The notes: generated by a model not told the origin, from the sequence alone. Shown: positions 16,232 through 30,466, counted from the stretch's first letter. The stretch: 41,278 bases of DNA from a virus (IMGVR_UViG_3300048583_000035:1-41278); one strand, 5' to 3'. Program-made: numbers and translations.

Positions 16232-17772
16232 GCTGCCGCCTTCTCACGCGCCTTCGCGTATGCAATGTTCTTGGCCTTGATGCGGTTGAGCACGTTGCGC
16301 GTGATTTCCACGCCCGGCGTCGTATCGACACGCCAGCCACGCGGCGGCTCTGTGCCGGTCATCTCGCGAAATAAGTGATAAGCCCGCGCCTGCTGCTTCT
16401 CGGGTGCGCTGTGTGCCCGCGCGTAGGTGGCAACCTGCGCCCATACGTGCGCGCGGTCGTCGCCCATCTTCTTGCCGCCGAGCATCACGATTTCGCGCAT
16501 CTCGCCGGCCGAAGACTCGGTCAGCGATGCCTGCTGCACCTCATGCCCGCAAGCCATGCAGCGCCGCGTGAATGGGCTGTGGCCGCACACCGGGCAAGCC
16601 TTCGGCGCCTTGTCTTCCGGGTCATCCTTACGCACTGCCTTGTCCAGCTTCTCGCCAGCGTCCAGCGCGTCCAGCCCGTTGAAGTAGATGTCCTCAAAGT
16701 CCTCGCGGAAGCGGATGATGTTGCCGCTGTGGTCGAGAAGGATGCAGTCCTTCTTGCCCGTCTCCGGCGATGACCGCAGGCCACGGCCCCACATCTGAAT
16801 CGCAGTGCTCAAGCTCTTGCGCAGCGGACGGCAATCAACGACACAGCCAACGTCAGGCACGTCAAAACCCTTCGCCAGCGCCTCGACGCTGATAAGCACG
16901 CGCAGCCGCGAAGTCGGCTTTTTGTATTCGACCAGCAGCGCAGCGCGCTCGACTGGCGTTGTATGACTGGTGAACACCGAAGCCATCACGCCGGCTTCGT
17001 TGAACTGCCTGCACAGTTCCTCGCAGTGCGCAATCGTGGCGCCAAAGACGATGGTCTTGCGGCCTTCGCCGTGCTTCGCCCACTCGCTCACCACATCGCC
17101 AACGATGCCCATGCCGCGCTCTGCTGCCGCACGGTCTGTCCACTCGCCGCCCGATGTCTCTGCGCCCGTCATGTCGGGCCGCGTGCACGACAGCACGCGC
17201 ATCGGCACCAGCACGCCAGATTTCGTCAAGTCGTGCATCGTGGTGGCGTTGACCAAATTCGTGAACAGCTTGCCCAAGCCCGAGGAAAATGGCGTAGCCG
17301 ACAGACCAACAACAGCGGCGCGGCATGTCGGAATGTGCTCAGTCCACGCCGCCATCTGCGTGTGCGCCTCATCGATCACGATCACGTCGGCGTCGGGCCA
17401 CTCGCGCCTAGCGATGGTCTGCGCGCTGGCGATCTGAAACGGCATTGAAGAATTCGCGCGCCAGTGCTGAGCCTGCAGCACTCCGTGAGCACTCAAGCCG
17501 TAGCGGTCGGCCGCCTCGCTCGTTTGGTTAATAAGCGTCGTGCGGTCGCACACAAACACCGCACGCTTGCCGCGAATCAGCGCTTCGTGGATCACTCGCA
17601 GACCAAGGTAGCTCTTCCCGGCGCCGGTCGGCGCCATGAGCATCTGGCACCGATGCCCGGCGCGCAGCCCCTGCCGCAGCGCCTCGTGCGACGAGTCCTG
17701 AAACGGCCGGGCAGGCGGAAAGCACGCAGATGCGTAATTCGGCGCGTCGTCTGGGAAGAGCGTGTGGTTCAT
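16228..17772 (-). CDS. SF2 (DEAD/DEAH-type) helicase with C-terminal zinc ribbon
   Basis: 514 aa from ATG 17772 (ATGA overlap). Walker A ..APTGAGKSY.., motif II ..VIVIDEAH.., and C-terminal ..CPVCGH..(7)..CMACGH... Confidence 0.85.
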   Translation of the reverse strand: MNHTLFPDDAPNYASACFPPARPFQDSSHEALRQGLRAGHRCQMLMAPTGAGKSYLGLRVIHEALIRGKRAVFVCDRTTLINQTSEAADRYGLSAHGVLQAQHWRANSSMPFQIASAQTIARREWPDADVIVIDEAHTQMAAWTEHIPTCRAAVVGLSATPFSSGLGKLFTNLVNATTMHDLTKSGVLVPMRVLSCTRPDMTGAETSGGEWTDRAAAERGMGIVGDVVSEWAKHGEGRKTIVFGATIAHCEELCRQFNEAGVMASVFTSHTTPVERAALLVEYKKPTSRLRVLISVEALAKGFDVPDVGCVVDCRPLRKSLSTAIQMWGRGLRSSPETGKKDCILLDHSGNIIRFREDFEDIYFNGLDALDAGEKLDKAVRKDDPEDKAPKACPVCGHSPFTRRCMACGHEVQQASLTESSAGEMREIVMLGGKKMGDDRAHVWAQVATYARAHSAPEKQQARAYHLFREMTGTEPPRGWRVDTTPGVEITRNVLNRIKAKNIAYAKAREKAAA

Positions 17773-18503
17773 GCGGACGCCTTTTCCAGCTTCTCGAACT
17801 TCGTGCGCCAGGACTTCGCCAGCCTGATTGCTGCCGCTGCCTCGTTCGTCAGGCCAGCGATGCGCGACTCCAGCGTTCGGATCAGCGCCGCCTGCTGCTT
17901 GCACTTCTCTGTCATCGCGGCCAACTTGTCGTCAGACTCCAGCAACAGCCGCACGACCTCGGCGTCGTCCTCGGCACTACGCTGGGCTTCGGCGATTTCC
18001 TCGGCGCTCGGCCCTTCTTCGTCTTGTGGCTCGGCCTCACGCTGCTTGATGAACTTTGCGCCGGCCTTCTCAAGCCGCGCCGACACTCGCGCGCCTTCCT
18101 GCTTGTCGCGCTCGCGCTTAGCCGCAAGCTCTGCCTCAAACTGCTCTACAGGCACGGCGGCCAGCTTCTGAGCCCGGCTCGACAGGTCTTTGCTGATGCC
18201 GGCATCGGCCAGCGTGGGGGCGGTTTTCCCGTGGTCGTTGCTGACGACCACGGGACCGCGCTTCAAAGTCGCGGCCGGCTTCAGCCCGCCTTCGGCCTTC
18301 GTCGCAGCCAGCATCTCGCCAAGCCGGCGCTCTGCGCGAATGCGAATCTCGGCCGCATCAACCTCAAGCGTCTTGTCCTGCGCCATGCGGCCATACGCTT
18401 GCATCGCGGCAGCCTTGTCGGCCCAGGTCTTCACCTCATCGACCGACTTGCATTCGGCGATGGCGCGGCACGCCGCTTCGTACTTGATGAGTTGCTGTGT
18501 CAT
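17769..18503 (-). CDS. conserved phage early protein, unknown function
   Basis: 244 aa from ATG 18503 (ATGA overlap). N-terminus MTQQLIKYEAACRAIAECKSVDEVK.. and a coiled-coil C-terminus. Confidence 0.55.
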   Translation of the reverse strand: MTQQLIKYEAACRAIAECKSVDEVKTWADKAAAMQAYGRMAQDKTLEVDAAEIRIRAERRLGEMLAATKAEGGLKPAATLKRGPVVVSNDHGKTAPTLADAGISKDLSSRAQKLAAVPVEQFEAELAAKRERDKQEGARVSARLEKAGAKFIKQREAEPQDEEGPSAEEIAEAQRSAEDDAEVVRLLLESDDKLAAMTEKCKQQAALIRTLESRIAGLTNEAAAAIRLAKSWRTKFEKLEKASA

Positions 18504-18763
18504 GGTGTCTTGAAGGAGAAGGAAGGGCACCGCTGCAAGATGTCGCGCAGCGCAGCGCCGCGCTTTGCACAGCGGTACTCAGTGCGCCAGTGATCGCACT
18601 CGATGCACATGCGCCGGTCGTCGCGCTCGTAGTCGCGCTCAAACAAGCGATCTGCCCACGTCTCAGCGTCCGGCTCGCTCAGTCCGCGATGCATAAACAG
18701 ACTGACGCGAAAACTGAAGCGCGCGATTTCGCGCTCACCCCACGGAGGCAGATTGCGGCTCAC
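18500..18763 (-). CDS. small CxxC protein
   Basis: Contains ..REIARFSFRVSLFMHRGLSEPDAETWADRLFERDYERDDRRMCIEC... Start is either GTG 18763 or ATG 18694. Confidence 0.5.
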   Translation of the reverse strand: MSRNLPPWGEREIARFSFRVSLFMHRGLSEPDAETWADRLFERDYERDDRRMCIECDHWRTEYRCAKRGAALRDILQRCPSFSFKTP

Positions 18764-22297: not shown

Positions 22298-22708
22298 ATG
22301 ACCGCTGTAGCAGCATCAAGCGTTCGCATCCGCAGCATGGCAGATGGCACGCTTCGCGCCGAAATTGATTTCGAGCCGCGCGACGCTGCTGCAGCGTTTG
22401 CCATGCTTGGACAGCCCGGCCAGCCCATCGCTGTGGCGCCGCTCAAGACGGCAGCGCAACAACAGGCGCAGGAGGCGGCGCCAAAGGCCGCAGGCGGGCC
22501 GCTGGCGAAGCTGGCGGGGCAGTGGTGCCAGATGCCGCAGTTCCTCGCGTGGAGCGGCTGCAACACGGCTGACGCCGCCGCAGAGTTCATCCGGCGCGAG
22601 TGCGGCATCAGCAGCCGCGCCGAGCTTGACCACAACGCGGCAGCGGCTGCAGCGTTCCACACGCACATCCGCGAGCCGTTTTCAACGTACATGAAGGGCA
22701 CAGGATGA
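22298..22708 (+). CDS. hypothetical early protein
   Basis: 136 aa containing ..WCQMPQFLAWSGC..AAEFIRRECGISSRAELD... Confidence 0.5.
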   Translation: MTAVAASSVRIRSMADGTLRAEIDFEPRDAAAAFAMLGQPGQPIAVAPLKTAAQQQAQEAAPKAAGGPLAKLAGQWCQMPQFLAWSGCNTADAAAEFIRRECGISSRAELDHNAAAAAAFHTHIREPFSTYMKGTG

Positions 22709-23202
22709 CATCGCTTCTACTCATCGCTCAGGAATACCGGGCAGCAGCGGCGCAGCTTGCCGACCTCGACCTCCCGGCAGAAGTCGTCTCCGACACGCTG
22801 GAGAGCCTGGCCGGCGACATTGAAACCAAAGCGCAGAGCGTGGCGCACATGGTCCGCAGCTTGGAAGCGCAAGCCGCCGCCGTGAAGCAGTGGGCGAAGG
22901 ACGCCAGCGAGCGCGCGAAGGCCATCGAAGCACGCGCCGAACGGCTGCGCGAGTACCTGAGCAGCAACATGCAGGCATGCGGCATTCAGCGCATCGAAGG
23001 ACCGGGCATCACGCTGAGCTTTCGCAAGACGAGCGCCGTCGTGATCGATGACGAAGCGCAGATTCCGGCAGCGTACATGCGGCAGAAGCCGCCGCCGCCT
23101 GCGGAGCCGGACAAGCTGGCGCTGGCCGCTGCGCTGAAGACCGGCGAGACGATCCCGGGCGCGCGGCTGGAAACGCGGCAGGCGCTGCAGGTGCGGGCTT
23201 GA
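22705..23202 (+). CDS. Siphovirus Gp157-like protein
   Basis: 165 aa. Coiled-coil N-terminal half and a characteristic C-terminus ..EPDKLALAAALKTGETIPGARLETRQALQVRA. Confidence 0.6.
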   Translation: MTSLLLIAQEYRAAAAQLADLDLPAEVVSDTLESLAGDIETKAQSVAHMVRSLEAQAAAVKQWAKDASERAKAIEARAERLREYLSSNMQACGIQRIEGPGITLSFRKTSAVVIDDEAQIPAAYMRQKPPPPAEPDKLALAAALKTGETIPGARLETRQALQVRA

Positions 23203-23300
23203 ACGCAACAGCTAACCTGGACCCGACAGCATGAGCAACGATTCACGAAGCGAGACCCCGGCGCATGCTGTCGGGGCTCAGGTTCAGCGAGGGGTTAGGC
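23198..23300 (-). repeat. attC-like site S1 (array-distal boundary; left box degenerate)
   Basis: Plus strand: CTTGAAC-GCAACA-GCT-AACCTG-GACCCGACAGCATG(30-nt loop)CATGCTGTCGGGGC-T-CAGGTT-C-AGC-GAGGG-GTTAGGC. The left box overlaps the TGA of the Gp157-like gene. Confidence 0.65.
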
Positions 23301-23302
23301 GC

Positions 23303-23578
23303 GTGGTGTGCGCAGCCCTGCGAGCTACAGACGGCCGGCTACTGCTGGGAATACGGCACTACAGCCAAGACATGCACGACCAACTGGCGCAACGTGCTGA
23401 CCGCGACCGCTTCCTGCTGCGGCTAGACCCGAACCAGGGCTTCGTTGACCAGCACGGCGTGTACATGACGCGGGAGGAAGCCTACCGAGTTGCCGAAGCG
23501 GCTGGGCAGATTGCCTACCCGGAGCGTTGCGGACGTGGCCTTGAAGGGCCGAAGCTTTACAGCGAAGGACTGTACTGA
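23303..23578 (+). CDS. hypothetical protein (cassette 1)
   Basis: 91 aa from GTG 23303, 8 nt after the GAGGGG of S1. The alternative ATG 23231 lies inside the S1 stem. Sequence ..VVCAALRATDGRLLLGIRHYS..GFVDQHGVYMTREEAYRVAEAAGQI..LYSEGLY. Confidence 0.55.
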   Translation: MVCAALRATDGRLLLGIRHYSQDMHDQLAQRADRDRFLLRLDPNQGFVDQHGVYMTREEAYRVAEAAGQIAYPERCGRGLEGPKLYSEGLY

Positions 23579-23585
23579 TGCAAGC

Positions 23586-23670
23586 GCCTAACGTAAAGCT
23601 AACCGGCGCCTGCACGGCGCCGTGAGTAGCACCCTTGCCGGAGGGCGTCCGGTTCAGCGAAATGTTAGGC
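23586..23670 (-). repeat. attC-like site S2
   Basis: Plus strand: GCCTAAC-GTAAA-GCT-AACCGG-CGCC..(branched loop)..GGCG-T-CCGGTT-C-AGC-GAAAT-GTTAGGC. Confidence 0.75.
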
Positions 23671-23688
23671 GCGTGGTGCCGGAGCGAG

Positions 23689-24012
23689 ATGATGACTGAA
23701 GACCAAGTACGCGAGATGGTGAAGGAGTGTGGCCTTGACTGGCAGCGCGGGTACATGCCGATGTTTGATGGCGATCCAACGAACCGCTATGCGGCGCTGG
23801 TCAACGCCGCGCGAACGAACGCCCTGCAAGACGCCGCCCGCTGGGTGGACGAAGAAGTGGGCCACGCCGTGCAAGATGGCTGGAGCGTTGAAGCGGTGCA
23901 GGCCCTGATGGCGACGCGGGACATGCTCCGGGCGCACGCCGACATGAATGCGACGACCGTTGAGGTAATCCCAAGCGCCGATACGCCAACTTGGCGCGAC
24001 GGTGTGCGTTGA
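23689..24012 (+). CDS. hypothetical protein (cassette 2)
   Basis: 107 aa, with GGAG 5 nt upstream of ATG 23689. MMTEDQVREMVKECGLDWQRGY... Confidence 0.6.
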   Translation: MMTEDQVREMVKECGLDWQRGYMPMFDGDPTNRYAALVNAARTNALQDAARWVDEEVGHAVQDGWSVEAVQALMATRDMLRAHADMNATTVEVIPSADTPTWRDGVR

Positions 24013-24014
24013 GG

Positions 24015-24072
24015 GCCTAACGTTGCAATTAAGCGGCTGCCGTAGGCGGTCCGCTTGAATTGCTTGTTAGGG
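24015..24072 (-). repeat. attC-like site S3 (58 bp)
   Basis: Plus strand: GCCTAAC-GTTGC-AATT-AAGCGG-CTGCC(GTA)GGCGG-T-CCGCTT-G-AATT-GCTT-GTTAGGG. The bulges are T24050 and G24057. Confidence 0.85.
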
Positions 24073-24097
24073 CGCTGGTGGAGAAACGGGACGAACT

Positions 24098-24760
24098 ATG
24101 CACGCCACATGCCGCTGGTGCGGACACGCTGAACGAGAGCACGACCGGCAGTATGGGTGCGGCGAGTGCGATTGCGAACACTTTGAAAGGGAAAGAACGA
24201 TGAGCATGGACCATGTGCAACTAGCCCGCGCGCTGTGGGTGTGGTTTGGCTACCGCATTGACGAGAGCAGCGAGCCAGGCGCAGACCCGCGCGTTGACGC
24301 GCTCGCCGAGAAACTGGAAGAGTGGATTCCGGCCTTGCCCTACGAGCCGCTACACAGTGACCAGATTGAGCGCATTGCGCTTGAGTTGGGATGGGACCTT
24401 GACCAAGGGCGCGTAGGCGGCGACCTTGACACTTTTGCGCGCTACGTCGAGCAGGCGCACGGCATTTGCATTACCAACATGGCCGGAGGTGGCAAGGCCG
24501 ACCGCTACGTGAGCCACAACAAGAAAGTGGGGAACATTGGGCCTGCCAACCTGCCGCGCCTAGAAGTGGACGCGGCACACTGCCGGCGCATGGCATGCGG
24601 CGTGCAGGAATGGATGGCGCAGGGCTCAAACCCGGACGAGATGCCGAAGCCGCAGATTGCCGCGCTGGCGTTGCTGGTGAAGGAGCTTTGCACCGAAGTC
24701 CGACGCCTAGGCGAAGACAACACAACGCCGATGCAGCCGCATGCGCACGGGTTGATGTGA
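24098..24760 (+). CDS. hypothetical protein with N-terminal CxxC..CxxC motif (cassette 3)
   Basis: 220 aa starting MHATCRWCGHAEREHDRQYGCGECDCEHF... An in-frame alternative start is ATG 24200, preceded by AAGGGA. Confidence 0.55.
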   Translation: MHATCRWCGHAEREHDRQYGCGECDCEHFERERTMSMDHVQLARALWVWFGYRIDESSEPGADPRVDALAEKLEEWIPALPYEPLHSDQIERIALELGWDLDQGRVGGDLDTFARYVEQAHGICITNMAGGGKADRYVSHNKKVGNIGPANLPRLEVDAAHCRRMACGVQEWMAQGSNPDEMPKPQIAALALLVKELCTEVRRLGEDNTTPMQPHAHGLM

Positions 24761-24767
24761 GCGAGCG

Positions 24768-24866
24768 CCCTAACGGTCGAAGTGGGCCGGAGACCCGGCC
24801 AAAAGGAACGTGATGACTGAGCAAACGACGGAAGCCGGGGCTCTCGGCTCGACTGAGGGGTTAGGC
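24768..24866 (-). repeat. attC-like site S4 (long loop carries SD and ATG of cassette 4 ORF)
   Basis: Plus strand: CCCTAAC-GGTCGA-AGT-GGGCCG-GAG-A-CCCGGC(34-nt loop)GCCGGG-G-CTC-T-CGGCTC-G-ACT-GAGGG-GTTAGGC. The loop contains AAGGAA and ATG 24813. Confidence 0.75.
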
Positions 24867-25133
24867 CTGGAGCCGGAGCGCGCAGCGTTTGAGCGCTGGT
24901 ACGCCACGACTGACGCGCGCTGGTGGAACACAAGCGATGCGGCATTTGCGGCGTGGCGCGCGGCCGTGGCGGCAGAGCGCGAGCGGTGCGCCGTCGCCGC
25001 TTGGAGCCACTACATGGACATTTGCAAGAAGCGCGGGCTACCTGCCGCAATGTTTGATGATTGGTGCGCAGCAGGGGCCATACGCGGGCCTAACGTGGGA
25101 GTTAAGCCGCAGACACCGGCCGCGCCGACGTAA
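24813..25133 (+). CDS. hypothetical protein (cassette 4)
   Basis: 106 aa. The start lies in the S4 loop, and no in-frame start exists for 100 nt after the S4 right box. The ORF reads through the S5 left box (CCT AAC) and stops in the S5 loop. Confidence 0.6.
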   Translation: MTEQTTEAGALGSTEGLGLEPERAAFERWYATTDARWWNTSDAAFAAWRAAVAAERERCAVAAWSHYMDICKKRGLPAAMFDDWCAAGAIRGPNVGVKPQTPAAPT

Positions 25134-25188
25134 CCACACACACAAATGCTGGCAGCCGGTGGCTGTCGGCTTGAACGACTAGTTAGGG
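25088..25188 (-). repeat. attC-like site S5
   Basis: Plus strand: GCCTAAC-GTGGGA-GTT-AAGCCG-CAGAC..(loop)..GGCTG-T-CGGCTT-G-AAC-GACTA-GTTAGGG. The minus strand contains GTTCAAGCCGAC and CGGCTTAACTC. Confidence 0.85.
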
Positions 25189-25214
25189 CTCAGCGCCCGC
25201 CACAGGAGTGAACC

Positions 25215-25502
25215 ATGTACGTGATTGCAACCGAAAGCCGCCGCAAAGACGAAGTGCTGTTTATGGTGGACCGGAACCGCCAGCGCGCCAGCTTTTGGAG
25301 CAACCGCCTTAACGACGCCATGAAGTACGGCGACAAGTCTGCGGCCCAGCAGAAAGCTACAAAGCTGCGATTCAACCGGCCGCGCGTGCTGACGCTTCAA
25401 GACGCTGCGCGCATTGCTGGCGAGCAGGCACGCGAGCATGAGCATGAGCAAGCGATGGCCGACGATGAGGCCGGATGGGATGGGCACAAGGGGCATTTCT
25501 GA
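25215..25502 (+). CDS. hypothetical protein (cassette 5)
   Basis: 95 aa with a GGAG SD. MYVIATESRRKDEVLFMVDRNRQRASFW... Confidence 0.6.
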   Translation: MYVIATESRRKDEVLFMVDRNRQRASFWSNRLNDAMKYGDKSAAQQKATKLRFNRPRVLTLQDAARIAGEQAREHEHEQAMADDEAGWDGHKGHF

Positions 25503-25503
25503 G

Positions 25504-25561
25504 CCCTAACGCCCGAGTTCACGCGGCGCCGTAGGCGCTCGCGTGGAACGAAGTGTTAGGC
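25504..25561 (-). repeat. attC-like site S6 (58 bp)
   Basis: Plus strand: CCCTAAC-GCCCGA-GTTC-ACGCG-GCGCC(GTA)GGCGC-T-CGCGT-G-GAAC-GAAGT-GTTAGGC. Confidence 0.85.
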
Positions 25562-25591
25562 ATCACTTTTACCGAAGCGAAGGGAGCGACG

Positions 25592-25906
25592 ATGGACATT
25601 GACACTGCAGACCATGTGCTGCACGGCCCGAGCGGCGAAACCTGGGTGGTGGCCTACGTTGAAGGCGACCGGCTGGCTTGGTGCGGGTGGCCCGAAGGCG
25701 AGGCAAAGCTGGCCGATTGCACGCTGCTGAAGAAGGCCACTACCGAGCAGCGTGACAAGCTGCTGCTGGAGATGGCCGATTGCACGAACGACCGTCGCGG
25801 AAGGTATGCGCGGCAGCGCCTTGATTTGAACGACTGCCCGCGAACAAGCCGGTTAAACATGGACAGGGACCGGATGTGGGCAGAGCACGGCATCCCTGGC
25901 GCGTGA
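25592..25906 (+). CDS. hypothetical protein (cassette 6)
   Basis: 104 aa from ATG 25592, preceded by AGGGAG. MDIDTADHVLHGPSGETWVVAYVEGDRLAWCGWPEGE... Confidence 0.6.
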   Translation: MDIDTADHVLHGPSGETWVVAYVEGDRLAWCGWPEGEAKLADCTLLKKATTEQRDKLLLEMADCTNDRRGRYARQRLDLNDCPRTSRLNMDRDRMWAEHGIPGA

Positions 25907-25907
25907 T

Positions 25908-25965
25908 GCCTAACGGCCAAGCTCACCTGCCGCCGCAGGCGGTCAGGTGCAGCGAGGGGTTAGGC
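25908..25965 (-). repeat. attC-like site S7 (58 bp)
   Basis: Plus strand: GCCTAAC-GGCCAA-GCT-CACCTG-CCGCC(GCA)GGCGG-T-CAGGTG-C-AGC-GAGGG-GTTAGGC. Confidence 0.85.
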
Positions 25966-25984
25966 CCCAACTTGGAGAACTGAA

Positions 25985-26317
25985 ATGACGGTGATGAGCA
26001 ACGAAGACACGGCGCTGCCGGAGACGACCGAAGACGAGGCTTGGTACGACGCCGAGATTGCCCCGGCGCTGGCCGCGCTTGCGAAGCGGTGCCACGAGCG
26101 CGGGATGTCGTTTATTGCAGCGGTGGAGTACCAGCCCGGCGACCGGGCGGGCACCTACTACCTGACGCAAGACGCCGGAACTGCTATGCGCATGCTGCAC
26201 CTGTGCGCGCAGACCGTGCCAAACGTGGACGGCTACATCATGAGCCTACGCAAGTGGGCCGATGCCAACGGTGTGGACACCGGCGGCAGCTTTGTGATGC
26301 GGCGCCTTGGGGCCTAA
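25985..26317 (+). CDS. hypothetical protein (cassette 7)
   Basis: 110 aa with a GGAG SD. The stop codon is the TAA inside the S8 left box (GCC TAA C). Confidence 0.6.
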   Translation: MTVMSNEDTALPETTEDEAWYDAEIAPALAALAKRCHERGMSFIAAVEYQPGDRAGTYYLTQDAGTAMRMLHLCAQTVPNVDGYIMSLRKWADANGVDTGGSFVMRRLGA

Positions 26318-26380
26318 CGTTGCCGGTAACCGGCCCGTTGCGGCTTGCCGCAATGGGTCCGGTTGACTGGCGTGTTAGGC
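26312..26380 (-). repeat. attC-like site S8
   Basis: Plus strand: GCCTAAC-GTTGCC-GGT-AACCGG-CCCGTTGCGG(CTTG)CCGCAATGGG-T-CCGGTT-G-ACT-GGCGT-GTTAGGC. Confidence 0.85.
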
Positions 26381-26406
26381 AGCACTGTTGAACAACGAGG
26401 AAACGT

Positions 26407-26760
26407 ATGAGCAACCACACACCAGGGCCTTGGCATACAGCGACTGCTGACGAATGGCGCACTGCCAGCGGCGAGCATGCGCAGTGGGGCCGCTTTGACA
26501 TCAGCGCCGGCAGCAACGACCAGGCCGCAGAGAACTACTACCGCGTGGCCAGCGTGAGCAACGTGAACAACTCGGACCAGAACCTGGCCAATGCGAAGCT
26601 GATTGGGGCCGCGCCTGACCTACTGATGGCGCTGCGGGAGATTGCCGCCGACTACGCCGACCGATTTGACATGGACAGCCCGAGCACAAACCCCGGCATG
26701 AAGTACGTGGTGCAGCAGGCACGCGAGGCTATCGCGAAGGCGACGGGTTGTGCTGCCTAA
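26407..26760 (+). CDS. conserved hypothetical phage protein (cassette 8)
   Basis: 117 aa with a GAGGA SD. ..HTPGPWH..NLANAKLIGAAPDLLMALREI... The stop is the TAA inside the S9 left box. Confidence 0.6.
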   Translation: MSNHTPGPWHTATADEWRTASGEHAQWGRFDISAGSNDQAAENYYRVASVSNVNNSDQNLANAKLIGAAPDLLMALREIAADYADRFDMDSPSTNPGMKYVVQQAREAIAKATGCAA

Positions 26761-26812
26761 CGTTCGTATTGAGCCGCAGCCGTAGGCTGTCGGCTCGAAT
26801 ACGGGGTTAGGG
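26755..26812 (-). repeat. attC-like site S9 (58 bp)
   Basis: Plus strand: GCCTAAC-GTTCGT-ATT-GAGCCG-CAGCC(GTA)GGCTG-T-CGGCTC-G-AAT-ACGGG-GTTAGGG. Confidence 0.85.
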
Positions 26813-26858
26813 CGCTGATGCCGGAGCGCGATCATGTTTGCGTGTTACAAAATAGTTG

Positions 26859-26886
26859 TTGACGCTGGCGGTTGCTGTGCTACAGT
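26859..26886 (+). promoter_or_regulatory. sigma70-like promoter inside cassette 9
   Basis: TTGACG-16 nt-TACAGT. The transcript would begin at the 22-nt leader that is shared with the promoter at 30494. Confidence 0.55.
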
Positions 26887-26891
26887 AACCA

Positions 26892-26913
26892 CATCGCAAC
26901 ACGCAACCCGGAG
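26892..26913 (+). repeat. 22-nt leader repeat, copy 1 (CATCGCAACACGCAACCCGGAG)
   Basis: Identical to 30528..30549. It ends in the GGAG Shine-Dalgarno sequence and contains the internal direct repeat CGCAAC-A-CGCAAC. Confidence 0.9.
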
Positions 26914-26919
26914 AGACAA

Positions 26920-27063
26920 ATGCAAACCACCTACTGGAACGGAGACCTGGCCCGCTACACCGGCAAGACCATGACATTGCACGGCGGGTTGTTCTACGAA
27001 ATCGAACTGCTTGAAGGCCACCTGAAGGGCCAAACCAAAGTCACGCAACGCGCCCCCAAGTAA
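26920..27063 (+). CDS. small hypothetical protein (cassette 9, gene 1)
   Basis: 47 aa: MQTTYWNGDLARYTGKTMTLHGGLFYEIELLEGHLKGQTKVTQRAPK. The ATG is 6 nt after the leader GGAG. Confidence 0.5.
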   Translation: MQTTYWNGDLARYTGKTMTLHGGLFYEIELLEGHLKGQTKVTQRAPK

Positions 27064-27075
27064 AGGAGACTTGAC

Positions 27076-27294
27076 ATGCACACCTTCCAAGTTGTTACCC
27101 GCGAAGTCCAACATGCCGGTCGTCAAATCACTGCTGACGTTGTGCGCAACGATGGGCGTGTCGTTCGCTCTGGCATGTGGCCCGACTATGCCGAGGCCGA
27201 CTGCGCACTGCTGAACGAGTATTGCGCTGGAGGCTGGACTGCTGCGCAGTACCACGCCGAGCGTGCTGTGCGTATGGCGTCTCTGCGCAAATGA
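27076..27294 (+). CDS. hypothetical protein (cassette 9, gene 2)
   Basis: 72 aa with an AAGGAG SD. Confidence 0.55.
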   Translation: MHTFQVVTREVQHAGRQITADVVRNDGRVVRSGMWPDYAEADCALLNEYCAGGWTAAQYHAERAVRMASLRK

Positions 27295-27476
27295 GCGCCG
27301 ACAAGAACAAAGGGGGGCGACCCCCGGCCCCGCCCGGCCTGCGCCGGGTAAACGTCCCGCTTCGCCTGCCCGAGTGGCTGGTGCAGTGGATGGCAGAGCA
27401 GGCCGAGACGCCTGCGGAGTTGATCGAAGCCGCACTGCTGAAGGCGCACAAGCTGCGCCCGCCGCGTGCGCCCTAA
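27291..27476 (+). CDS. ribbon-helix-helix-like small DNA-binding protein (cassette 9, gene 3)
   Basis: 61 aa with an ATGA overlap. ..KGGRPPAPPGLRRVNVPLRLPEWLVQWMAEQA..AELIEAALLKA... The stop is the TAA in the S10 left box. Confidence 0.5.
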   Translation: MSADKNKGGRPPAPPGLRRVNVPLRLPEWLVQWMAEQAETPAELIEAALLKAHKLRPPRAP

Positions 27477-27528
27477 CGTTCGAGCTAACTTGCCGCCGTA
27501 GGCGGTCAAGTTGAGCGAGGGGTTGTGC
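27471..27528 (-). repeat. attC-like site S10 (58 bp; variant right box GTTGTGC)
   Basis: Plus strand: CCCTAAC-GTTCGA-GCT-AACTTG-CCGCC(GTA)GGCGG-T-CAAGTT-G-AGC-GAGGG-GTTGTGC. Confidence 0.85.
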
Positions 27529-27563
27529 TTCACCCATCCGAAGCGCGCAACTGTAGGAACTAC

Positions 27564-27785
27564 ATGATTCTTGAAATGATGCCAACGCTGCTGATGCGCG
27601 CGTTCCATGTGCCAGAGGTGGTTGTGGACTGCGGGAAGCCCGACGACTTTGAAGGCACCGCCTGCGCCGCGTTTCTGATGTGGCGCATGGAGTACCCGGA
27701 CTACAGCGCGAAGCTGCGTATTCCTGAGCAGCCAGAGGCCGAGAAGGCGCTGAACCGGGCACTCTTCCGTAGGCGTGCCGCGTGA
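27564..27785 (+). CDS. hypothetical protein (cassette 10)
   Basis: 73 aa from ATG 27564, preceded by AGGAA. MILEMMPTLLMRAFHVPEVVVDCGKPDDFEG... Confidence 0.55.
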   Translation: MILEMMPTLLMRAFHVPEVVVDCGKPDDFEGTACAAFLMWRMEYPDYSAKLRIPEQPEAEKALNRALFRRRAA

Positions 27786-27786
27786 A

Positions 27787-27879
27787 GCACAACGCAGAAG
27801 TAACCGGCTTCGGCCGAGCGGAGGATCGATGACCAACGAACGTACGCCGGCCGAAGTCCGGTTGACTGCCGGGTTAGGC
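27787..27879 (-). repeat. attC-like site S11 (variant left box GCACAAC; loop carries SD and ATG)
   Basis: Plus strand: GCACAAC-GCAGA-AGT-AACCGG-CTTCGGCCG(31-nt loop)CGGCCGAAG-T-CCGGTT-G-ACT-GCCGG-GTTAGGC. The loop contains GGAGGA and ATG 27829. Confidence 0.8.
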
Positions 27880-28128
27880 CCGCTGCCCGAGCCAGCCGCA
27901 GAAGCGGTGATGGACTTATGCGCCGACCACCAAGGGCCAGTAGAGGCATGGCAGTACCTGCCGGCCGACGCGATGCTCTACACCGCGAACCAGATGCGCA
28001 GCTATGCCGCCGCAGAGATGGTGCGTGCAGTTTCCGCAGAGCGTGCGCGCTGGACAGAAGCGGTGATGGCCGAGCTTGACGGCAACGGCCAGGCGCACGC
28101 CATCGTGGACTATGCGACAAGGGCCTAA
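27829..28128 (+). CDS. hypothetical protein (cassette 11)
   Basis: 99 aa from the loop ATG (an alternative ATG 27910 lies after the site). The stop is the TAA in the S12 left box. Confidence 0.55.
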   Translation: MTNERTPAEVRLTAGLGPLPEPAAEAVMDLCADHQGPVEAWQYLPADAMLYTANQMRSYAAAEMVRAVSAERARWTEAVMAELDGNGQAHAIVDYATRA

Positions 28129-28218
28129 CGACGAAGCTGAACGGGAGCCCACGCATGACCAAGCCTGAAAACGCACCCGCCGCTGCCGTGGGCTCTCCGT
28201 TCGAGCGCCCTGTTGGGC
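28123..28218 (-). repeat. attC-like site S12 (variant right box GTTGGGC; loop carries ATG)
   Basis: Plus strand: GCCTAAC-GACGAA-GCT-GAACGG-GAGCCC(39-nt loop with ATG 28155)GGGCTC-T-CCGTTC-G-AGC-GCCCT-GTTGGGC. Confidence 0.8.
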
Positions 28219-28544
28219 GGCCGGTGCCGGAGCGCGTGACCTTGGCGTGCCTGCTGGTGCAGCAAAACTTCAAGCCCGGCGACCAGGCGCCACAAGGCTA
28301 CTTGGCGTGGCACGAGTGGGCCGAGGTGCAGCACAAGGCCGGGTTGCGGCAGAAGCAGTGCGGCCGGTGCGGGCTGTGGCGCTACCCGCAGCAGTTGAGC
28401 GCAGAGGTTGACCGCGCCGAGCTTGTGATGACGAAGAAGCGCAAGTCGCGGCGCGTGACGGTGGAGACGCCGGTCTGCAACGACTGCCACAAGCCGCCCA
28501 ACGTGGGAGCTAAGTTGGAGACAACGGCGCCCGCACAGAACTGA
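28155..28544 (+). CDS. zinc-ribbon protein (cassette 12)
   Basis: 129 aa containing ..CGRCGLWRYP..(28)..CNDC... It starts in the S12 loop and stops in the S13 loop after reading through the left box GCCCAAC. Confidence 0.6.
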   Translation: MTKPENAPAAAVGSPFERPVGRPVPERVTLACLLVQQNFKPGDQAPQGYLAWHEWAEVQHKAGLRQKQCGRCGLWRYPQQLSAEVDRAELVMTKKRKSRRVTVETPVCNDCHKPPNVGAKLETTAPAQN

Positions 28545-28603
28545 CCGGAGCATGACGGCGCAGATGGGCGCCGTTGGCTCTCAACTTGAGCGACAGGTTA
28601 GGC
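28496..28603 (-). repeat. attC-like site S13 (variant left box GCCCAAC)
   Basis: Plus strand: GCCCAAC-GTGGGA-GCT-AAGTTG-GAGACAACGGCGCCC(33-nt loop)GGGCGCCGTTGGCTC-T-CAACTT-G-AGC-GACAG-GTTAGGC. Confidence 0.8.
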
Positions 28604-28630
28604 CACGCTGTGGCCGAAGCGAGGTAAAGC

Positions 28631-28852
28631 ATGAGAAGCACACGATCTAACCTGATGGCGATTGCAGCAATCGCGGCGATGGGCGCGGGGCTGGCGCAGG
28701 CGGCAATGCCGGCGCCGCGCAAGGGCAGTAACCGTGACTACAAGCCCACGCCACCGCGCTGCGACACAGCGCTGGCGCGCGAAATTGCCGAGCACAACGA
28801 AGCCGTCGAGCGCCGCAAGGCTGAAAAGAAGGCGCGGAAGCTGGCGCGCTGA
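28631..28852 (+). CDS. small secreted basic protein (cassette 13)
   Basis: 73 aa with a GAGG SD. Signal-peptide-like MRSTRSNLMAIAAIAAMGAGLAQA. Confidence 0.6.
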   Translation: MRSTRSNLMAIAAIAAMGAGLAQAAMPAPRKGSNRDYKPTPPRCDTALAREIAEHNEAVERRKAEKKARKLAR

Positions 28853-28860
28853 ATTGCGTG

Positions 28861-28911
28861 GCCTAACGTGTTTTAGGCCACACCATCGGAAACTCTGCAC
28901 AAGTTTTAGGC
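28861..28911 (-). other. attI-like simple site plus a direct-repeat copy (int-proximal end of the array)
   Basis: The minus strand reads GGCCTAAAACACG|TTAGGCC (plus 28861-28879). This compares with the recalled class-1 attI1 core GCCCTAAAACAAAG|TTAGGC. GTTTTAGGC recurs 33 bp away (28870-28878 and 28903-28911). No L stem or bulges are present here. Confidence 0.6.
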
Positions 28912-28913
28912 AC

Positions 28914-29198
28914 ATGCGAAGCTACTACGCCCCATCGACGCGCCACAACGGCAGCGAACGCAGCGACATCCTGAGCCGCGAGCGCGAGCCGTACACGCGA
29001 CCGCTACCGTACATCGGTCGGCTGTTGATCGCGCTGCCGGGCTACAGCATTGATTGGACGCTGCGGCAGGACATGCGCGACATGCGGCGCTTCTATGCGC
29101 TCGGCGCAGATGGCGAGCGGCTGGCCCATGCCGCGCCGAAGGAGTTGCTGCGCAGCGTTGCGCTGCTGGTGCCGCGCTACAGCGTGGCGGAGGATTGA
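28914..29198 (+). CDS. hypothetical protein between the attI-like site and xis
   Basis: 94 aa: MRSYYAPSTRHNGSERSDILSREREPYTRPLPYIG... The ATG abuts the second GTTTTAGGC repeat. Confidence 0.5.
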   Translation: MRSYYAPSTRHNGSERSDILSREREPYTRPLPYIGRLLIALPGYSIDWTLRQDMRDMRRFYALGADGERLAHAAPKELLRSVALLVPRYSVAED

Positions 29199-29201
29199 GC
29201 G

Positions 29202-29408
29202 TTGAAGCAAGACGAAGAAAAGTACATCCCGCTACTTGAGTGGGGCGCTAGGCGTTACGGCTCGCTTGCGTCTGAGTACACGCTGCGCCAGTGGGCGAAG
29301 AGTGGCGAGATATATCCGCCGCCGCAGAAGGTCGGCAATCGATGGGCTGTGCTGCCGACTGCGCAGCGGATAGTAGATGGCAGGCTTCCGCTGGTGTCGC
29401 GGCTGTGA
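29202..29408 (+). CDS. xis: excisionase, lambda Xis-like
   Basis: TTG 29202 lies 7 nt after GGAGGA. ..YIPLLEWGARRYGSLASEYTLRQWAKSGEIYPPPQKVG.. parallels recalled lambda Xis MYLTLQEWNARQRRPRSLETVRRWVRECRIFPPPVKDG. Confidence 0.7.
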   Translation: MKQDEEKYIPLLEWGARRYGSLASEYTLRQWAKSGEIYPPPQKVGNRWAVLPTAQRIVDGRLPLVSRL

Positions 29409-30466
29409 ACGCAGCCCGTCGCCAGCGCAGCCGCAGCACCTGGCCGCGCGGAATGATGGAACCGCGCCCCGGGTACTACGCCTGGCGCCATCCAGACGGC
29501 CGAACGTTTGCAATCGGCCGCGTGCCGCTGTCGCACGCAATCGCCGAGGCCGCCGCTGCGAATGCGCACCTCGAAAGCCTGAAGCCGGGCCTAGTCGAGC
29601 GGCTGACCGGCGCAGACCGCACCGTGGCCGACCTGCTCGGCAAGATGGACCCGGCCCGCACGCCGAACACTGCAAAGAGCATGCGCAGCCTGGACAAGAT
29701 CATCACCGCCGCAATCGGCACCGTGCCATGCGGGCAGTTGACCGTGCGCCAGTGCGCCGACTTGATCGAAAGCATCCGCGAAGCTGGCAAGGAGCGCAGC
29801 GCGCAGGCCGTGCGCTCGCGCCTAGTGTCGGCGTGCAAGCTGGGCGGCGAACTCGGCTGGATGGAGAGCAACCCGGCCGCCATGACGCGCGCCCGCAAGG
29901 TGACAACGAAGCGCGGCCGGCTGACGCTGGAAACGTTCCGCGCGATCTACGCGAAGGCTGGCGAGGTCGCAGAGTGGCTACCGCACGCAATGATGCTGGC
30001 GCTGGTGACCGGCGCAGACCGCGTGACGATCACGCGCATGACGCGGGACATGGTGGCCGATGGGCACCTGACGTACCGGCGCAGCAAGACGGGCGCCGCT
30101 GTGGCCGTGCCGCTGCGGCTGCGGCTGGATGCTGTGGGCGTGACGCTGGATGAGCTTGTGCGGCCGAAGACGGGCGTCGTGAGCCGGTATCTGGTGCACC
30201 ACGTCAACCCGCACGGCAACGCGCCTGCGGGGAGCGCGGTGTTTCCGGATCGCGTGTCGAAGGCGTTCACGGCTGCGCGCAAGTTGGCTGGGTTGCCGGA
30301 CGAGGGCGCGGGGACTTTTCACGAGCTGCGGTCGCTGTCGAAACGCTTGTATGACCAGCAGGGCGGAGTAGACACCAGAGCCCTCCTCGGTCACAAGACG
30401 CAGAAGATGGCCGACATGTATGCCGACCCGCGAGGCATAGAGGCGATCCGGGTGCGGGTGGCATGA
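29405..30466 (+). CDS. int: tyrosine integrase, lambda Int family (arm-binding N-terminus)
   Basis: 353 aa from GTG 29405 (GTGA overlap with xis). ..RPGYYAWRHPDGRTFAIG.. and ..TFHELRSLSKRLY..ALLGHKTQKMADMYADPRG.. align with recalled lambda Int (..NGYYCYRDPRTGKEFGLG.. and ..TFHELRSLSARLY..HLLGHKSDTMASQYRDDRG). Confidence 0.85.
   Translation: MNAARRQRSRSTWPRGMMEPRPGYYAWRHPDGRTFAIGRVPLSHAIAEAAAANAHLESLKPGLVERLTGADRTVADLLGKMDPARTPNTAKSMRSLDKIITAAIGTVPCGQLTVRQCADLIESIREAGKERSAQAVRSRLVSACKLGGELGWMESNPAAMTRARKVTTKRGRLTLETFRAIYAKAGEVAEWLPHAMMLALVTGADRVTITRMTRDMVADGHLTYRRSKTGAAVAVPLRLRLDAVGVTLDELVRPKTGVVSRYLVHHVNPHGNAPAGSAVFPDRVSKAFTAARKLAGLPDEGAGTFHELRSLSKRLYDQQGGVDTRALLGHKTQKMADMYADPRGIEAIRVRVA

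Follow-up and report, generated by a model that had tools for sequence, protein, structure and literature searches.

Architecture of the locus

The window, by which we mean the entire stretch of 41,278 nucleotides analyzed here (about 41 kb, 63–65% GC), looks like a complete temperate phage genome. The early genes occupy the plus strand between 19.7 and 31.6 kb, where 13 attC hairpins sit between a gp157-like gene (22705–23202) and the xis-int pair. The array sits among the early accessory genes of a temperate phage that probably infects a member of the Burkholderiales from the Rubrivivax/Methylibium group. A megablast search with the 22–32 kb region against GenBank phages returned no matches. 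A tRNA-Ser gene (GCT; 18207–18282, plus strand) lies inside a minus-strand ORF (17769–18530), close to where the leftward gene block ends. The features of the array and its right-hand end are listed below, where the arrow (↓) marks the crossover point, as it does throughout the text.

23210–28603, plus strand: array of 13 attC sites, recognized by pattern, folding, covariance model and detector
28598–28866, plus strand: last, site-proximal cassette module, TTAGGCCACGC...ORF...GCGTGGCCTAA, with ORF 28631–28852 (73 aa) and 12-nt complementary private ends
28861–28867, plus strand: R box of the attI-type site, GCCTAAC (minus strand G↓TTAGGC), whose six leftmost bases are cassette-derived
28866–28867: predicted crossover point, AA↓C on the plus and G↓TT on the minus strand, where homology between cassettes and between relatives stops
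28868–28869, plus strand: spacer GT (AC on the minus strand); AACGT is invariant in 11 of 11 aligned sites, including those beside IntI
28870–28878, plus strand: L box GTTTTAGGC (GCCTAAAAC on the minus strand), the conserved non-cassette half
28885–28893, plus strand: ATCGGAAAC, a weak match (by eye) to the TGTCnnnTAAC direct repeats of IntI-linked attI regions
28903–28911, plus strand: second copy of GTTTTAGGC, 2 nt upstream of the ORF94 start codon
28914–29198, plus strand: ORF94 (94 aa), member of an uncharacterized family of about 95–106 aa
29202–29408, plus strand: xis (excisionase; Pfam Exc, E = 1.4e-07), homologous to Exc genes upstream of int in four other phage contigs (L002–L005)
29291–30466, plus strand: lambda-type phage integrase (Pfam and PHROG); these coordinates denote the longest ORF from 29291, and the 337-aa gene call of the source covers 29453–30466

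The attC array and its inverted cassettes

The 13 attC sites are all located on the plus strand at the following positions.

Sites 1–5: 23210–23300, 23586–23670, 24015–24072, 24768–24866, 25088–25188
Sites 6–9: 25504–25561, 25908–25965, 26312–26380, 26755–26812
Sites 10–13: 27471–27528, 27787–27879, 28123–28219, 28496–28603

On this strand, each site is composed of RYYYAAC, 6 nt, an L stem, a loop, the opposite L stem with bulged T and G, 5 nt, and GTTRRRY. The spacing and the extra bases match those of a canonical attC bottom strand, as compared with the aadA1 attC of R100. A covariance model built from five sites (R1) scored the window sites with 72–79 bits on the plus strand and 17–23 bits on the minus strand, and a geometry-based detector reported 9–13 sites on the plus and 0–2 on the minus strand, depending on its stringency. 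Across 131 distinct attC sites, taken from 30 viral loci as well as the window, pairing in the L helix reaches 98.7%, with compensatory changes in 12 of the 14 pairs, and the observed covariation score was reached by none of 500 shuffles. All 12 ORF modules in the window carry private complementary ends of 9–12 nt, which is the signature of integron cassettes.

With 13 attC sites between 23210 and 28603 and no IntI across the 41-kb contig, the array is a CALIN. Seventeen CALINs, each with at least two attC sites by definition, were previously found in phage genomes, and IntI1 provided in trans was shown to recombine phage attC sites (Qi et al., 2023; PMC9892861). The array in the window resembles them as an attC cluster residing inside a phage genome without an integron integrase. 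Unlike these CALINs, it has 13 cassettes, a conserved attI-type end and a dedicated neighboring gene family, and its ORFs belong to a set, comprising 42 viral loci in our analysis, in which the ORFs are systematically inverted with respect to the attC polarity. The cassette ORFs are on the attC bottom-like strand in 12 of 12 cases in the window and in 124 versus 2 cases across the 42 viral loci (L006–L059), so the phage cassettes are systematically inverted and read toward the attI end. In bacterial-type arrays, cassette ORFs lie on the opposite strand (21 versus 3), as do the GNAT cassettes of Rubrivivax identified by Pfam. Coding strands were assigned by a codon log-odds model, which gave mixed results on the lower-GC Rubrivivax array, where the strand was fixed by the Pfam GNAT matches.

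The ORF at 28155–28544 (129 aa, GC3 of 0.87) starts in the loop of the attC site at 28123–28219 and ends in the loop of the one at 28496–28603; an alternative in-frame GTG start is located at 28236 with GGAG upstream. The module at 26813–27470 contains three small ORFs (26872–27063, 27076–27294 and 27294–27476) along with an AT-rich stretch in which a promoter-like TTGACG...TACAGT is accompanied by an inverted repeat (26838–26906), and judging from these elements it may represent a multi-gene cassette with its own promoter. Several R' boxes are followed by a conserved sequence, GTTAGGSCGCKGRTGCCGGAGCG..., bearing a GGAG ribosome-binding motif (23294–23320, 23664–23695, 26806–26835 and 28213–28240), which indicates that the repeat unit does not stop with attC but reaches the 5' leader of the following ORF.

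The junction at the end of the array

The hairpin architecture ends after the last cassette, as the first-pass annotation had described, and we found no attC-like hairpin on the plus strand beyond 28603. At the junction, the minus strand reads GGTGTGGCCTAAAACACG↓TTAGGCCACGC, i.e., ...AACACG↓TTAGGCCACGC across the site; the plus strand at 28856–28886 is GCGTGGCCTAACGTGTTTTAGGCCACACCAT, corresponding to ATGGTGTGGCCTAAAACACGTTAGGCCACGC on the minus strand. The sequence bears out the two opposed boxes, CCTAAAAC and GTTAGG, with the 2-nt spacer read earlier from the minus strand. The assigned private partner could be verified as well, because TTAGGCCACGC (about 28597–28608) is the exact complement of GCGTGGCCTAA (28856–28866) and the pair flanks the ORF at 28631–28852.

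The R box varies among relatives (GCCCAAC, GCATAAC and GCCGAAC), and the sequence to its right is constant. Since the left box changes with the neighboring cassette while C-GT-GTTTTAGGC stays the same, the cassette gives way to the backbone at AA↓C, between 28866 and 28867. This is the canonical bottom-strand cleavage position, as checked against the aadA1 cassette boundary of R100. In every relative, cassette-specific sequence meets conserved sequence at this very G↓TT, so the crossover point is as well defined as had been proposed. The L box has close variants, namely GTTTTAGAC in L004, GCTGTAGAC in L142 and L143, GTTGTAGAC beside the full-length IntI of L161, and GTTTTAGGG in R100.

CCTAAAAC occurs twice in the 41-kb window, at 28870–28877 and 28903–28910 on the minus strand, and the two copies are separated by 33 bp as annotated. 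The annotation had likened the second GCCTAAAAC copy to the accessory direct-repeat sites of attI, an analogy that was not supported. The copy is in the L-box orientation, whereas DR1 and DR2 of attI1 repeat the R box (PMC8946536). Moreover, it is loosely conserved, degenerating to ATTTTGAGC, CTTTTAAGC, GATTTAAGC or AGTTTCAGC in close relatives and missing in several others. IntI-linked attI regions of the clade often contain two TGTCnnnTAAC repeats, and the window has at most one weak match to them by eye. This match at 28885–28893 may possibly be one accessory site, although the assignment is uncertain, as the motif was read by eye from four IntI-linked loci (L153, L196, L206 and L213) together with an ..AACTYTGC motif conserved in the right flanks.

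The two boxes could also be read as a degenerate attC stub, or as a small hairpin such as a terminator or RNA element, left after deletion of an attC interior. GTGGCCTAA and TTAGGCCAC indeed form a 9-bp hairpin of -8.5 kcal/mol (z = -2.9). However, the stretch 28861–28886 is merely an R-type 9-bp palindrome with a 6-nt loop; it lacks L boxes and was not matched by model R1. Its left arm changes in relatives (GCCCAAC, GCATAAC) with no compensation in the right arm, the plus strand has neither a T tract nor a terminator call, and the sequence aligns to attI sites beside IntI, which together make such a remnant extremely improbable.

Judged from the window alone, chance is excluded only weakly: CCTAAAACNNGTTAGG with up to two mismatches has one match against 0.07 expected, and 7 of 100 shuffles contained at least one. 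It is the recurrence of the junction in other genomes that decides the matter.

Recurrence of the junction in viral and bacterial arrays

The 18-mer GCCYAACGTGTTTTAGGC is found at the same array end and in the same orientation in six viral contigs, 64 metagenome contigs and several genomes. The form RYYYAAC-GT-GTTTTAGGC closes the arrays, with an L box identical in the six viral and 64 metagenome contigs. Most of the metagenome contigs have a GC content near 0.6, many are short, and attC sites were detected on the left in about half of them. The left box is GCCTAAC, GCCCAAC, GCATAAC or GCCGAAC depending on the locus; the R'' half varies, and the orientation is always the same. The attC family itself was found in 50 viral contigs. 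Rubrivivax sp. A210 also has the junction, along with a chromosomal array of the same attC family.

In bacterial arrays (Rubrivivax sp. A210, i.e., L071; L065; and about 30 metagenome loci such as L089, L096, L102 and L135), GCCTAAC-GT-GTTTTAGGC is followed by a conserved hairpin-rich stretch of about 100 nt. This stretch falls into several families, e.g., ...GGCAACAAGTGGGTGCATGCC...TTGTTGCCATAGGC, and had no Rfam or Pfam match at the bacterial loci with the junction. A group II intron or an IS1111-attC insertion was considered as the source of GTGTTTTAGGC in these arrays, and no match supported either. In L071, attC sites flank the junction on both sides, and one ORF is oriented toward it. 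A second type of array terminus, RYYYAAC-NNNAA-TTAGGCGAC, occurs in L015, L034 and L054, and its general form is an inverted TTAGGC box located 6 nt past the cassette end; L034 and L054 additionally carry a complementary GTCGCCTAA/GCCGCCTAA box downstream.

Comparison with attI sites

The attI1 core cited in the first-pass annotation was correct, as plasmid R100 reads GTCGCCCTAAAACAAAG↓TTAAAC, or ...GCAGGGCAGTCGCCCTAAAACAAAG↓TTAAAC when extended. Aligning the site with attI sites, the check that the annotation had called for, gave matches to R100 attI1, to environmental IntI1-like sites and to IntI-linked viral sites. The sites are compared below with intI placed on the plus strand.

Window: GCCTAA↓C-GT-GTTTTAGGC; right neighbor ORF94
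R100: TTTAA↓C-TTT-GTTTTAGGG; right neighbor intI1
Three environmental IntI1-like integrons: RYYYAA↓C-TTT-GTTTT(C/A)(T/G)GG; right neighbor intI
L161: GCCGAAC-GT-GTTGTAGAC, then 33 nt and ATG; right neighbor full-length IntI (TIGR02249, 435 bits; cut-off 265)
L187: GCCTAAC-GT-GTAGTGAAC; right neighbor IntI
L186: GCCCAAC-GT-CAAGTGAAC; right neighbor IntI
L036: GCCCTAAC-GT-GATTTCTAC; right neighbor a 120-aa N-terminal IntI fragment

A profile search identified 269 IMG/VR contigs encoding IntI relatives. Of 74 IntI loci examined, 43 have attC sites of this type to the left on the plus strand, and in most of them the chain of private partners ends 20–140 nt before intI. When RYYYAA↓C-spacer-GTTTT is placed on the plus strand, the attC bottom-like strand is also the plus strand in the window, R100, L072, L074, L076 and the 43 IntI-bearing viral loci. 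The polarity of the window therefore matches that of R100 and the environmental integrons.

The site in the window shares with attI1 (R100/In2) and the environmental IntI1-like attI sites the boundary between backbone and first cassette, the G↓TT crossover and the polarity relative to attC bottom strands, and its L box CCTAAAAC is identical to that of attI1. The spacer differs, being TTT (3 nt) in those sites and GT (2 nt) in the window, and this difference of one nucleotide counts against the attI assignment. Also unlike attI1, the window has no R-oriented repeats of the DR1/DR2 type, no adjacent intI and no evident Pc promoter, and its cassette ORFs are directed at the site, not away from it. 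The DR1/DR2 direct repeats are specific to attI1 and not universal; attIA has none (PMC8946536).

A closer likeness is found in the IMG/VR integrons with IntI (L161, L187, L186, and L036 with a truncated intI). They have the same AAC-GT-G.T.T...C core, attC family and polarity, their cassette ORFs are co-directional with the right-hand gene, and AACGT with the 2-nt spacer is invariant in the alignment. The L box of L161 deviates at two of nine positions, and the downstream start codon follows at a similar distance, after 33 nt in L161 and after 35 nt in the window. The difference is that an integron integrase, full-length or truncated, follows the site in these integrons, whereas a gene of the ORF94 family, xis and a lambda-type int follow in the window. 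The alignment indicates that the window site is homologous to the attI sites of a phage-borne integron clade, in which the spacer shorter by 1 nt is the norm. The recurrent junction, the alignment to IntI-adjacent attI sites and the likeness to attI1 together uphold the attI reading that had been proposed. Measured against the properties of an attI site, the sequence has a boundary with a G↓TTRRRY crossover, two inverted boxes, fixed polarity and homology to IntI-adjacent attI sites; it lacks the adjacent intI, whose position is held by ORF94.

Cassettes can also enter secondary, non-integron sites known as attG (Loot et al., bioRxiv 10.1101/2022.09.11.507474). Like the window site, they are double-stranded targets with a single cleavage outside a canonical integron, at which cassettes enter other replicons and seed CALINs. 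Unlike attG sites, which are scattered and share a GWT consensus alone, the site in the window consists of 11–17 conserved nucleotides, is homologous to attI and is present in many genomes.

Among the IntI relatives, those of L151–L224 are 51–62% identical to IntI1, and many of the contigs encoding IntI relatives have this attC family and a mapped attI site. In L161 (5276–6954), the cassette ORFs are co-directional with intI, and an ORF with a weak match to a Rieske domain crosses the junction and stops at a TAG inside the L box. In L036 (the same locus as L144; 5330–5765, oriented), the array end is followed by 55 nt and then by the 120-aa N-terminal fragment of an integron integrase, which looks like intI decay in progress. 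The junction-proximal cassette of L036 is homologous (85% aa identity) to the window ORF at 24098–24760. A search for further loci with the truncated L036 IntI found only the query itself.

A gene family in the place of intI

ORF94 seemed unique by BLAST. Profile methods revealed a divergent family of at least 154 small proteins, and the family HMM detected 19 loci, all of which (19 of 19) carry the junction AAC-GT-G(T/C)T(T/G)TAG(G/A)C 7–57 nt upstream. The genes of this family have the position and orientation of intI in the IntI-bearing relatives, and none was found at the 74 IntI loci. ORF94 had no significant match in Pfam, PHROG, NCBIfam or PDB sequences, nor by Foldseek against PDB and BFVD. 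Its structural model has a disordered N-terminus followed by four strands and a helix (pLDDT 73.6). The topology recalls a PUR repeat, a resemblance that scored E = 0.38 and TM = 0.27 and does not constitute evidence. The start codon of the right-hand gene lies about 20–36 nt past the L box regardless of whether it encodes IntI or an ORF94-family protein, and the gene begins with ATGCAA, ATGCGA or ATGCAC (window 28914, L161 5917, L142 10001 and L004 38). From these sequences, the replacement by ORF94 may have retained the start region of intI.

Because an ORF94-family gene always follows within 7–57 nt, and the second copy of the L box is 2 nt from the start codon, the conserved sequence might be a regulatory or 5'-untranslated element of that gene, e.g., an operator or translational signal. 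We regard this as very unlikely. A near-identical site precedes intI rather than ORF94 in L161, and others occur in bacterial arrays having neither gene. The spacing between site and start codon varies by a factor of eight, a search of 28400–29500 for a sigma-70-like promoter found none, and conservation begins exactly at the cassette boundary. The half site of 11 nt has remained identical while ORF94-family proteins have diverged to about 11–29% identity, which argues for selection on the site.

The neighboring integrase and the absence of IntI

According to the first-pass annotation, the layout was that of a complete integron, i.e., an integrase gene, an attI-like site and cassettes. The attI-type site and the cassettes are indeed present, but in the place of intI there is an ORF94-family gene. 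None of the window proteins searched matched the NCBIfam integron-integrase model, and tblastn with IntI1 gave nothing below E = 1. The adjacent int encodes a lambda-type enzyme with Phage_integrase and central Phage_int_M domains and a weak Arm-DNA-bind match; its homologues are named 'enterobacteria phage integrase', and it is accompanied by an Exc-family xis. Together, xis and int would serve chromosomal integration. Int relatives with 73–80% identity, found by tblastn (L002, L003 and L005), belong to phages whose genes are tightly packed and which lack attC sites, and the junction in turn occurs with no adjacent int in L013, L047 and L141–L143, where lysis or terminase genes lie to the right; hence the adjacent int cannot be taken as an integron integrase. 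L004, in which Int is 76% identical to that of the window, has the junction and an ORF94-family gene at the contig end. A single-protein search of the viral contigs for Int relatives found nothing.

The same observations bear on whether the junction might be a site for the phage's own enzymes, either an attP-like core for the lambda-type Int or a target of a novel phage activity such as ORF94, by which the cassettes would be shuffled autonomously. In favor, the window and L004 each have the junction, an ORF94-family gene, xis and int in an uninterrupted row, L136 combines the junction and an ORF94-family gene with a generic integrase downstream, and ORF94 and intI are mutually exclusive at one position. 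However, the junction is found without int nearby in the five loci named above, related Ints are found without the site (L002 and L005), recognition of folded attC is known for IntI only (PMC8946536), and the ORF94 model offers no recognizable catalytic or DNA-binding fold. Taken together, a site for the phage's own Int or for ORF94 is very improbable indeed.

With an attI-type site and an array, no intI, and no sigma-70-like promoter in 28400–29500, the locus is not a complete integron. It represents a variant integron platform that is carried by a phage, lacks IntI and has a conserved attI.

Is the site still used?

We consider it probable, at roughly 0.6, that the sequence at 28861–28878 is an attI-type double-stranded simple site serving as the primary recombination site of a phage integron platform, with IntI presumably acting in trans. 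The conserved half, C-GT-GTTTTAGGC, belongs to the backbone, the variable half, RYYYAA, is the end of the adjoining cassette, and the predicted exchange point is AA↓C on the plus strand, between 28866 and 28867. Since an integron integrase is missing from the phage, the site probably depends on one furnished by the host or by another phage, the candidate sources being a host chromosomal integron and a co-resident IntI-positive phage. A host chromosomal integron is a possible source because Rubrivivax sp. A210 carries the same attC family. There is no IntI in the window and none beside this exact junction in about 80 loci, which speaks against the reading and leaves present-day activity putative.

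Closely related loci differ in the cassette next to the junction, as seen between the window with ORF94 and L141 with an 84% identical homologue, and between L142 and L143, which have an identical ORF106. In a linkage test, the attC interior on the left, ORF-upstream side traveled alone with the module in three cases and the right one alone in none, the outcome expected from cleavage at RYYYAA↓C. Continued activity is favored by selection on the half site, the differing junction cassettes, the intact attC pairing and the linkage test.

The contrary case is that of a fossil attI, inherited from an integron that lost intI, with the array persisting as a frozen CALIN that changes by general or illegitimate recombination alone. 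The lack of IntI in the window and beside the junction elsewhere fits this account, as does the decay of intI in L036. Furthermore, L047 and L057, which are closely related and have the same junction, share their two proximal cassettes and differ distally, not proximally, and some shared modules break at both R boxes. The modules shared with L027 (w26407, 96% nt identity) and with L036 (w24098, about 90% nt identity) keep neither neighboring attC interior, with homology extending from GTTAGG to CCTAAC(G) (window 26374–26761 and 24066–24774, respectively). The loss of both interiors is not predicted by canonical single-strand, one-site exchange alone. Nevertheless, the invariance of the 11-nt half site next to such a divergent protein, the variation of junction-adjacent cassettes among close relatives, and the near-perfect pairing of all attC sites with compensatory changes argue for continued selection on recombination competence, and we regard a fossil as unlikely.

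The ORF94-family protein, which has taken the place of intI beside a perfectly conserved attI half site in many phages, could conceivably be a phage factor acting there, e.g., by recruiting an IntI from the host or a co-resident phage or by handling folded attC strands, so that the platform would be an actively maintained means of cassette acquisition and no decaying integron. Such a role is a doubtful proposition at present.

Implications for phage and host integrons

Integrons are seen as devices by which bacteria capture genes, and those found in phages have been reported as rare and small. The locus described here indicates that among environmental phages a sizeable group has long cassette arrays in the accessory-gene region, and the 50 viral contigs with this attC family and the 269 encoding IntI relatives broaden the picture of phage integrons. 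These phage arrays keep a conserved attI-type docking site, and their cassette genes are turned so as to be read by phage early transcription. Phage accessory genes probably provide anti-defense and host-takeover functions. Should the platforms that lack IntI be serviced in trans, a single cassette pool would be common to phages and host chromosomal integrons, which would open a direct route for exchanging both phage accessory genes and bacterial cassettes. The site at the end of the array provides a concrete recipient sequence for such phage-host cassette exchange.
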